Source of the DNA: Naegleria gruberi
Taxonomy: Eukaryota
Reading direction: 5' to 3' (one strand)
Assembly (NCBI GenBank): GCA_000004985.1
Contig: GG739443.1
Length of the DNA stretch: 1,349 nt
In this document: in pieces, positions 3 to 1,349 of the stretch
Layout of the letters: each line of letters starts with the position of its first letter
Numbering within the stretch: position 1 is the stretch's first letter
Translations under genes and position numbers: made by a program
Notes under the pieces: model-generated
Seen by the model: the letters and a program-made list of their open reading frames with translations, nothing else
Database searches by the model: none
What the model was told of the DNA's origin: nothing

Positions 3-1349
3 ATTAATGATAAGAAATCTGATAGCAAGGAAGAAACAAAACCTGAAAAGATTGTTGAACACAAGAAAGAGAGTACATCTAGCAAGATTGAAAAGAAATC
101 TGAAGAATCAAAGCCAGACACCAAGGTGGAACAAGTCAAATCTGATGAAAAGAAACCTGATATCAAGTCAAAGACTGAAAAAAAGAAAGAAGAAAAGACA
201 TCTTCTCATAAGGATGATGTAAAGAATTCTGAAAAGAAGAAATCTGAAGCCAAGAAGGATGATAAGAAATCTGAAAAGAAATCAGAACATAAGGATGATG
301 AACTGGATGATAACAAAATTCAAATCAAATCAGAAAACCTCCAAAAGAAGGTGGATGAAAATAAGAAGAAATCGGATATGAAGGATGACAAGATGTTAAA
401 TGAAAATAAGGAGAAATCCAAGACCGATACCAAGAAATCCGCAGGAAAGAAGTTAGAGGAATCTAATGACAAGAAATCCAATGACAAGAAATCAGAAAAG
501 AAGGAAGACAAGGCAGGGCATAAGGATGATTCTATGAAGGACGAAAAGAAATCTGAAAAGAAAGCAGATGATAAAGAAGAAACGAATAAAAAGAGGGATG
601 ACGAGAAATCTGAACATAAGGAAGATAAGAAATCTGAAAATTCTGACAAGATGACCAATGAGAAAAACAAGGCGAACGATAAGAAATCTGATAAGGATGA
701 TGTAAAGAAGAAATCTTCAAAGAAATCAGAAGAAAATGAGAAGGAATCTATTGAGCATAAAAAGGATTCTGAAACTTCCAAACCAGATTCCAAAATGCAA
801 GTCAAATCATCAGAAAAATCAAATTTAAAGACGGATGAAAAGAAATCCGAACATAAGGATGATAAGAAATCTGATAAGAAGGCCAATCCGCTCGATAAAT
901 CCGAAGCCAACAAGGATGAAAAGAAGACACACGATGATGAAAATAAATCAGATAAGAAGGATTATAAGAAATCAGATCATAAGGATGAAAAGAAGACTGA
1001 TAAGAAACTTGATAAGGATAATAAGAAGACACATGATGATGAAAAGAAATCAGAGAAGGATGAGAAATCTGAAAAGAAATCATATGATGAGGATGAAAAG
1101 AAGGTTGATAAAAAATCTGATACCAAGAAGGATGATAAGAAATCTGATAAGAAATCCGAACATAAGGATGATAAGAAATCTGATAAGGAAAAGAAATCTG
1201 ATGACAAGAAAGATGAAAAGAAATCTGATAAGAAATCACATGATGAGGATGATAAGAAATCTGAAACCAAGAAGGATGATAAGAAATCTGAAAAGAAATC
1301 AGAACATAAGGATGATAAGAAGGCTGATAAGAAACCAGAACATATGGAT
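3..1349 (+). CDS. Partial CDS (5' and 3' ends outside the window, codon phase starting at nt 3) for a highly charged Lys/Asp/Glu/Ser-rich low-complexity repeat protein with periodic His/Tyr, likely intrinsically disordered. Specific family not recognised.
   Basis: Frame +3 was translated codon by codon across all 449 codons. It contains no TAA, TAG or TGA and is the only frame open across the whole window. Codons show strong purine-first periodicity (aag, gat, gaa, aaa) and a consistent synonymous preference (GAT about 68 of 77 Asp, GAA about 52 of 62 Glu, CAT 12 of 14 His). Every competing ORF in the track is a short alternative-frame or antisense product of low complexity. In-frame ATGs at 378, 411, 534, 651, 795 and 1344 are all internal because the frame is already open upstream of them. 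Approximate composition is K 153, D 77, E 62 and S 56 of 449 residues, with no W, C or F. Confidence 0.75.
   Translation, partial: MNDKKSDSKEETKPEKIVEHKKESTSSKIEKKSEESKPDTKVEQVKSDEKKPDIKSKTEKKKEEKTSSHKDDVKNSEKKKSEAKKDDKKSEKKSEHKDDELDDNKIQIKSENLQKKVDENKKKSDMKDDKMLNENKEKSKTDTKKSAGKKLEESNDKKSNDKKSEKKEDKAGHKDDSMKDEKKSEKKADDKEETNKKRDDEKSEHKEDKKSENSDKMTNEKNKANDKKSDKDDVKKKSSKKSEENEKESIEHKKDSETSKPDSKMQVKSSEKSNLKTDEKKSEHKDDKKSDKKANPLDKSEANKDEKKTHDDENKSDKKDYKKSDHKDEKKTDKKLDKDNKKTHDDEKKSEKDEKSEKKSYDEDEKKVDKKSDTKKDDKKSDKKSEHKDDKKSDKEKKSDDKKDEKKSDKKSHDEDDKKSETKKDDKKSEKKSEHKDDKKADKKPEHMD
177..198 (+). other. Longest uninterrupted polypurine tract in the window (22 nt, gaaaaaaagaaagaagaaaaga), sitting inside the CDS.
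   Basis: Direct reading shows every base from 177 to 198 is A or G, bounded by t at 176 and c at 199. It is one of many purine runs; the + strand as a whole is about three-quarters purine by codon-composition estimate. Confidence 0.5.
250..299 (+). repeat. Copy 1 of a 50-nt exact intragenic duplicate (ccaagaaggatgataagaaatctgaaaagaaatcagaacataaggatgat), encoding (A/T)KKDDKKSEKKSEHKDD.
   Basis: Position-by-position comparison shows it is identical to 1267-1316. The flanking bases differ: g/a at -1 and g/a at +1. Confidence 0.85.
1124..1173 (+). repeat. Copy 3 (diverged) of the 50-nt repeat, with 2 mismatches relative to 250-299.
   Basis: The sequence is ccaagaaggatgataagaaatctgaTaagaaatcCgaacataaggatgat. 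The mismatches are gaa to gat (Glu to Asp) and tca to tcc (synonymous Ser). It is in the same phase as the other two copies. Confidence 0.8.
1267..1316 (+). repeat. Copy 2 of the 50-nt exact intragenic duplicate.
   Basis: It is identical to 250-299 over 50 nt. It is in the same reading phase (both copies start at codon position 1 of frame 3), so the duplication preserves the frame. Confidence 0.85.

Follow-up and report, generated by a model that had tools for sequence, protein, structure and literature searches.

A degenerate (D/E)KKS coding repeat in a lysine-rich gene fragment of Naegleria gruberi probably contains recent intragenic copies

We analyzed a stretch of 1349 nt from Naegleria gruberi (contig GG739443.1; hereafter the window), which carries part of a gene containing a degenerate 12-nt repeat that encodes (D/E)-K-K-S. 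We consider it likely that this repeat is a cryptic coding minisatellite within a gene for a disordered polyampholyte, and that three near-identical modules, here called copies A, B and C, are its youngest copies and arose by recent intragenic copying. An earlier reading of the same DNA (the original prediction) had attributed the near-identity of these modules to concerted evolution through recent unequal crossing-over or gene conversion between repeat units, and had predicted that the copy number or length of the gene would vary between strains or individuals. Our results agreed with the recency of copying, as 229 of 260 compared codons were identical against an expectation of about 195 ± 8, and the longest exact repeat of 50 nt was unusual (p ~0.008) even under our stricter null expectation. 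In contrast, the supporting argument from synonymous sites proved to be overstated, for reasons that lie in the lysine codons and are described below.

The window was rich in adenine (51% A) and had a GC content of 32.6%. Frame +3 was open across all of its 449 codons, with neither a start nor a stop, and stops were present in the other five frames; the repeats therefore lie inside one coding sequence, as had been proposed. Because the open frame lacked both a start and a stop, we concluded that the window derives from the interior of a single, longer protein-coding gene. The predicted product consisted of 34% Lys, 17% Asp, 14% Glu and 12% Ser, whereas hydrophobic residues made up 8% and only two residues were aromatic.

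The strongest nucleotide autocorrelation was found at lag 12, and the basic unit was GA(T/A) AAG AAA TC(N). In the frame +3 product, KKS occurred 29 times and KKS[DE] occurred 24 times. Tandem Repeats Finder (TRF) detected nested periods of 12, 24, 36, 63, 81 and 108 nt, mostly in 912–1349, and lag-12 identity climbed to 0.57 from position 1101 on, which corresponds to the last 250 nt. That is, the window held head-to-tail, in-frame units with periods of 12–108 nt inside one open reading frame (ORF), which is the arrangement of a coding tandem repeat. The top 100 internal-repeat lags were all multiples of 3, and most were not multiples of 12, which indicates that length differences between copies come to whole codons, in keeping with translation.

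The identity of 250–299 and 1267–1316 over 50 nt was confirmed as first reported, and no exact repeat in the window was longer. We found that the identity between copies A and C reached further, to 63 nt with one mismatch (237–299 versus 1254–1316; 62/63, lag 1017), where GCC in one copy and ACC in the other encode Ala and Thr. A third copy with two mismatches had also been described, and it does exist, but its core is at 1123–1172; the interval first given for it, 1124–1173, is off by one base and contains 35 mismatches. The two differences in this core were GAA>GAT, which changes Glu to Asp, and TCA>TCC, which is synonymous. The 14-mer GATAAGAAATCTGA had been said to recur at least nine times, and we counted exactly nine copies, in one codon phase, at the positions listed (9, 261, 624, 678, 861, 1134, 1170, 1251 and 1278), compared with a count of zero in 200 dinucleotide shuffles. 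Two repeats had been missed in the original prediction: the top-scoring internal repeat of the window, 1102–1187 versus 1246–1331 (86 nt, 92% identical, lag 144), and a further exact repeat, 39 nt long (840–878 = 1149–1187). Pairwise identities of the modules were 98% for A–C, 92% for B–C and 93% for A–B, with only 1–7 differences per pair. When the flanks of copy A were compared with those of copy C, identity fell to background at once on both sides; thus, the two copies, which are not adjacent, share an island of near-identity. The coordinates of all features are given in Table 1.

Table 1. Repeat copies and other features of the 1349-nt window
Feature	Position (nt)	Strand	Description
Partial coding sequence, frame +3	3–1349	+	449 codons, both ends open; degenerate 12-nt (D/E)-K-K-S repeat; sole stop-free frame
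Module copy A (KKSEAKKDDKKSEKKSEHKDD)	237–299	+	Holds 50-nt core 250–299; 98% identical to 1254–1316 over 63 nt; ~1 kb from B and C
Module copy B	1102–1187	+	Holds 2-mismatch core 1123–1172 and 39-nt exact repeat 1149–1187; 92% identical to 1246–1331 over 86 nt
Module copy C	1246–1331	+	Holds exact 50-nt core 1267–1316
Near-exact repeat (EKKSEHKDDKKSDK)	836–878	+	43 nt, 98% identical to 1145–1187; 840–878 exact
3′ higher-order tandem array	912–1349	+	Nested periods of 36, 63, 81, 108 and 144 nt (TRF and lag scan); most repetitive part of the fragment
Predicted α-helix, 37 residues (DNKIQIKSENLQKKVDENKKKSDMKDDKMLNENKEKS)	309–419 (aa 103–139)	+	Predicted local distance difference test score (pLDDT) 62–79, below 50 nearly everywhere else; least repetitive part, only stretch with predicted structure

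We compared the observed nucleotide identity with two null expectations. In the plain null, the protein was kept and synonymous codons were randomly exchanged between positions that encode the same amino acid (2000 shuffles); in the context-preserving null, the neighboring amino acids of each codon were kept as well (2000 shuffles). Under the plain null, the longest exact repeat had a mean of 21.7 nt and a maximum of 39 nt, so that 0/2000 shuffles reached 50 nt, and 0/2000 reached nine copies of a 14-mer. Under the context-preserving null, 14–17 of the 2000 shuffles reached 50 nt and 11–39 reached nine copies of a 14-mer. The excess is real, yet it is far less extreme once codon context is kept.

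A gene-wide comparison was made with the 36 exact peptide repeats of at least 6 amino acids. The same codon was used at 229 of the 260 amino-acid-identical positions, whereas the expected values were 152 ± 10 under the plain null and 193–197 ± 8 under the context-preserving null, and none of 1000 shuffles reached the observed number. The wobble bases of Ser codons matched in 27 of 40 cases in these peptide repeats, compared with 13.7 ± 3.7 in shuffles (2/1000). Synonymous identity between units was thus higher than the protein sequence and codon usage give. Because codon identity exceeded that of the context-preserving shuffles, we concluded that the repeat units share DNA ancestry beyond codon bias.

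The plain null favors the finding too much, because codon choice in this sequence depends strongly on context. The Lys codon was nearly set by the next base: the ratio of AAA to AAG before T or C was 43:3, and the ratio of AAG to AAA before A or G was 95:12. The octamer AAGAAATC was present in 28 copies (e.g., at 12, 93, 237 ... 1293) and covered 28 of the 29 KKS motifs as AAG AAA TCN, while the wobble base of the Ser codon in AAG AAA TCN varied (T16/A8/C4/G1). The rule extended outside KKS into the non-repetitive part of the sequence, where xKS used AAA in 9 of 10 cases. Together, the peptide motif and the context-fixed Lys codons account for most of the recurrence of the 14-mer and for much of the 50-nt identity. 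The original prediction had expected synonymous sites in such a charged repeat to decay quickly; this expectation was too strong, because the Lys codons, 34% of the total, are nearly fixed by the following base, but the excess identity persisted when context was kept.

Runs of A were scarce. Six runs of at least 5 nt were observed versus 22.8 ± 2.8 in synonymous shuffles, an approximately four-fold depletion (0/1000), and two runs of at least 6 nt were observed versus 11.8 ± 2.3 (0/1000). Runs of AAA Lys codons lower protein output and cause ribosome sliding (PMC4363877); thus, if selection disfavors poly(A) tracts in a product with 34% Lys, this would plausibly explain why AAG is used before codons that start with A. 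We rejected A-run avoidance as the whole cause of the Lys rule, because it leaves unexplained both the use of AAG before G (31:5) and the complete avoidance of AAG AAG TCN. These two features could reflect a general 3′-neighbor bias of the host, or descent from one founding unit.

These results suggest the following history for the repeat. The 12-nt unit encoding (D/E)KKS would have been amplified and diversified through in-frame slippage or unequal recombination, and later duplication of larger blocks (36–144 nt) would have produced the 3′ array. The modules of 50–86 nt would be the youngest copies, with B and C as array neighbors 144 nt apart. Tandem unequal crossover alone would not put a copy 1 kb off, and the isolated 5′ copy A was most likely created or overwritten by short intragenic gene conversion or by dispersed duplication. 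Either a brief tract of conversion or the dispersed duplication of a small segment would leave such a patch of 63 nt, with its partner far away and its flanks diverged. Superimposed on this history, the near-deterministic choice of Lys codons (AAA ahead of a pyrimidine, AAG ahead of a purine) keeps A-runs short and inflates the apparent synonymous conservation. Copy A appears closer to copy C than does C's own neighbor B, an ordering that rests on so few differences per pair that it is suggestive and not firm.

The same identity might reflect constraint and not recency, if the peptide KKDDKKSEKKSEHKDD were old and selected, and if its DNA identity followed from near-deterministic codons (the Lys context, together with a bias for GAT, GAA, CAT and TCT). 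In favor of this reading, the Lys rule governs nearly every KKS and also operates away from the repeats, and a 50-nt identity, which fewer than 1 in 2000 plain shuffles reached, had a chance of about 1 in 130 when codon context was kept. Charge mixing in the protein was better than random as well: charges were interleaved more evenly than in shuffles of the same residues (κ-like value 0.034 versus 0.090 ± 0.013), a hint that selection acts on the charge pattern and not on any exact motif. Constraint fails, however, to account for the gene-wide codon identity, which was above that in 1000/1000 context-preserving shuffles and included Ser wobble sites that are free to vary elsewhere. The differences among the closest copies also spoke against it. 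We observed 0 synonymous and 1 nonsynonymous differences for A–C, 1 and 3 for A–B, 3 and 4 for B–C, and 0 and 1 for 836–878 versus 1145–1187. The totals of 4 synonymous and 9 nonsynonymous differences are near the neutral expectation and opposite to the pattern of a long-conserved peptide; the replacements were conservative (D/E, A/T, S/A, V/D). Because there was no synonymous excess between the closest copies, recent copying of DNA explains them better than does selection on the peptide, and we regard constraint as an unlikely source of the identity. Several points nevertheless weigh against recent copying. Its recency and direction were deduced from a handful of differences within one sequence, and under the context-preserving null a 50-nt identity still has a probability of about 1%, so its significance falls short of overwhelming. 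The vocabulary of units is tiny (DKKS, EKKS, EHKDD), making it conceivable that a string of 16 amino acids was re-created by convergence. Lastly, according to large surveys, the copies within a protein repeat usually drift apart from one another, whereas orthologues preserve each individual copy (PMC5120217), and ongoing homogenization is thus not to be assumed as the default.

Two further explanations concern the DNA itself. If the contig were chimeric, mis-joined, collapsed or expanded in the array, then the distant copy or the spacing of the copies would not be real. Repeated k-mers within the window comprised 1.5% of 41-mers, 4.4% of 31-mers and 8.6% of 21-mers; the frame ran off both ends, as if a short contig had broken within a repeat-rich gene; and the longest exact repeat, at 50 nt, fell just under 55, a common final k in assembly. 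But no k-mer of 51 nt or longer was repeated, hence reads of 100–150 nt span all of the exact repeats. The frame was also intact over all junctions, with each repeat offset in frame, and the sequence between the copies was unique and varied. An assembly artefact of this kind seems quite improbable to us. The original prediction had warned that short-read assemblies may have collapsed or expanded this region, and the proportion of repeated 31-mers mildly justifies that warning for small-k graphs, whereas the span of ordinary reads argues against it. The remaining explanation is that the window does not code for protein and consists of purine-rich satellite DNA; its frame would then be open simply because the 12-nt unit contains no stop. 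In favor of this, antisense frame −2 was also open for up to 197 codons, and neither a homologue nor a domain supported coding. In contrast, 449 stop-free codons were maintained at 33% GC, and about 800 nt of this stretch have diverged and are poorly repetitive. Indels between copies were all whole codons and not whole 12-nt units, and substitutions between copies were conservative in the protein (D/E, A/T, S/A). In addition, both the context rule, which is specific to codon position, and the depletion of A-runs are features of translated sequence. We therefore judged a satellite origin to be extremely unlikely, and we retained recent copying within a coding repeat as the preferred interpretation.

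On the antisense strand, frames were open for 145–197 codons, with products rich in Ser, Phe and Leu, at 320–913 (−; 197 codons) and 802–1239 (−). Searches of these long antisense ORFs gave no Pfam match. Coding on the antisense strand was rejected, and we attribute the long antisense ORFs to the purine-rich composition of the codon repeat. A scan of the window against Rfam revealed no match to an RNA family.

The encoded region is almost certainly an intrinsically disordered, highly charged and well-mixed polyampholyte, as judged from composition and structure prediction. The fraction of charged residues was 0.65, the net charge per residue was +0.03, and κ was ~0.05; runs of Lys did not exceed 3 residues, and runs of acidic residues did not exceed 4. 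AlphaFold2, run on the single sequence, gave a mean pLDDT of 48.5 and predicted coil all over except for the helix listed in Table 1. We infer that the region may act as an extended spacer, linker or tail.

No related DNA or protein was found. Profile searches of the frame +3 product in Pfam, NCBIfam and PHROGs gave no match (E up to 1–10), and a sequence search of the PDB gave no family match and one chance match (E = 0.27). A word-indexed protein search was empty at both E ≤ 0.001 and E ≤ 10, and phmmer, run exhaustively against 1.84 billion cluster representatives, revealed no relative. BLAST searches of phages and plasmids in near, distant and protein modes were likewise negative for relatives, no viral, prokaryotic-genome or metagenome contig contained the exact 32–40-mers taken from the unique part, and back-translated patterns identified no relative in IMG/VR. 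A full-text search of the literature for five peptide strings returned nothing. One concern was that the composition correction of HMMER hides relatives of such a biased sequence. A local control on the same composition ruled this out: the self-match scored 710 bits and a 50%-mutated copy still scored 337 bits. That is, because the control detects a mutated copy, the absence of matches is genuine.

A search with the 20-mer repeat core AAGGATGATAAGAAATCTGA retrieved 29 loci, which BLAST showed to be low-complexity look-alikes only. Two of these look-alike K/D/S repeats contained AAGGATGATAAGAAATCTGA exactly and were located in unrelated low-GC metagenomic contigs, L022 at ~690–870 (MDSW01157551.1) and L028 at ~8826–8969. 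The repeat in L022 belongs to an S1-like ORF ending in (KKSVEKKDD)n, and that in L028 belongs to a membrane-anchored ORF with a DKKDDKKS linker.

We concluded that the window contains an ordinary coding low-complexity repeat, in which recent intragenic copying is common, and that its importance beyond the gene itself is little. The analysis offers a worked example of why codon usage that depends on context has to be taken into account before apparent synonymous conservation in a low-complexity coding repeat is ascribed to recent conversion. The Lys rule and the depletion of A-runs illustrate how a protein with 34% lysine may avoid poly(A) tracts. The gene would also be a reasonable candidate for a length-polymorphic marker, and a site to check in small-k assemblies. 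A more far-reaching interpretation, which we view as very unlikely, is that this is a contingency-type locus, where intragenic recombination actively varies the length of a secreted or surface polyampholyte, or that the invariant octamer AAGAAATC, with its 28 copies, is itself a nucleic-acid signal overlying the coding repeat, such as a purine-rich element for splicing or RNA binding. If this were true, then with no relative among ~15 billion proteins the window would represent a lineage-specific, fast-evolving gene with a repeat that functions at the DNA or RNA level.

Comparison with known systems helps to place the repeat. Like the ER/K single α-helix domains, the window protein combines a very dense charge with a near-zero net charge. 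It differs from them because Asp and Ser (29%) replace Glu, and because coil is predicted instead of a long helix; furthermore, pairs of opposite charges at i/i+3 and i/i+4 were fewer than in shuffles (164 versus 189 ± 10). We therefore rejected an ER/K single α-helix. Other Lys-Asp/Glu low-complexity proteins include Nop56, Nop58 and Cbf5, with KKE/D repeats at their C-termini, and the cylicins, with KKD repeats; we treat these as leads only. The window protein resembles them in composition, in the alternation of KK with acidic residues and in predicted disorder. In contrast to them, the fragment is at least 449 amino acids long, has Ser in nearly every unit and a recurrent EHKDD, and shows no globular domain within the window; nor did Pfam, NCBIfam, PHROGs or PDB searches match a Nop56/Nop58/Cbf5, cylicin or Nopp140/SRP40 domain or profile there. 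The low-GC bacterial tails and linkers of L022 and L028 have the same kind of charged repeat and share the 20-mer, but the likeness is confined to the low-complexity stretch, at ~70% over 150 nt in many overlapping registers, so they are analogues and not homologues.

Another close parallel is provided by intragenic coding tandem repeats or minisatellites, whose evolution proceeds through slippage, unequal recombination and gene conversion; examples are yeast cell-wall genes and many surface proteins of parasites and bacteria. The window differs from these in having a degenerate and very short unit of 12 nt, no more than three or four near-identical modules, and one copy that lies 1 kb from the array. 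In other respects it is like coding tandem repeats and minisatellites: its units are in frame and head to tail, its periods are nested, its presumed young copies are near-identical, and the identity between units is above the expectation from codon usage.

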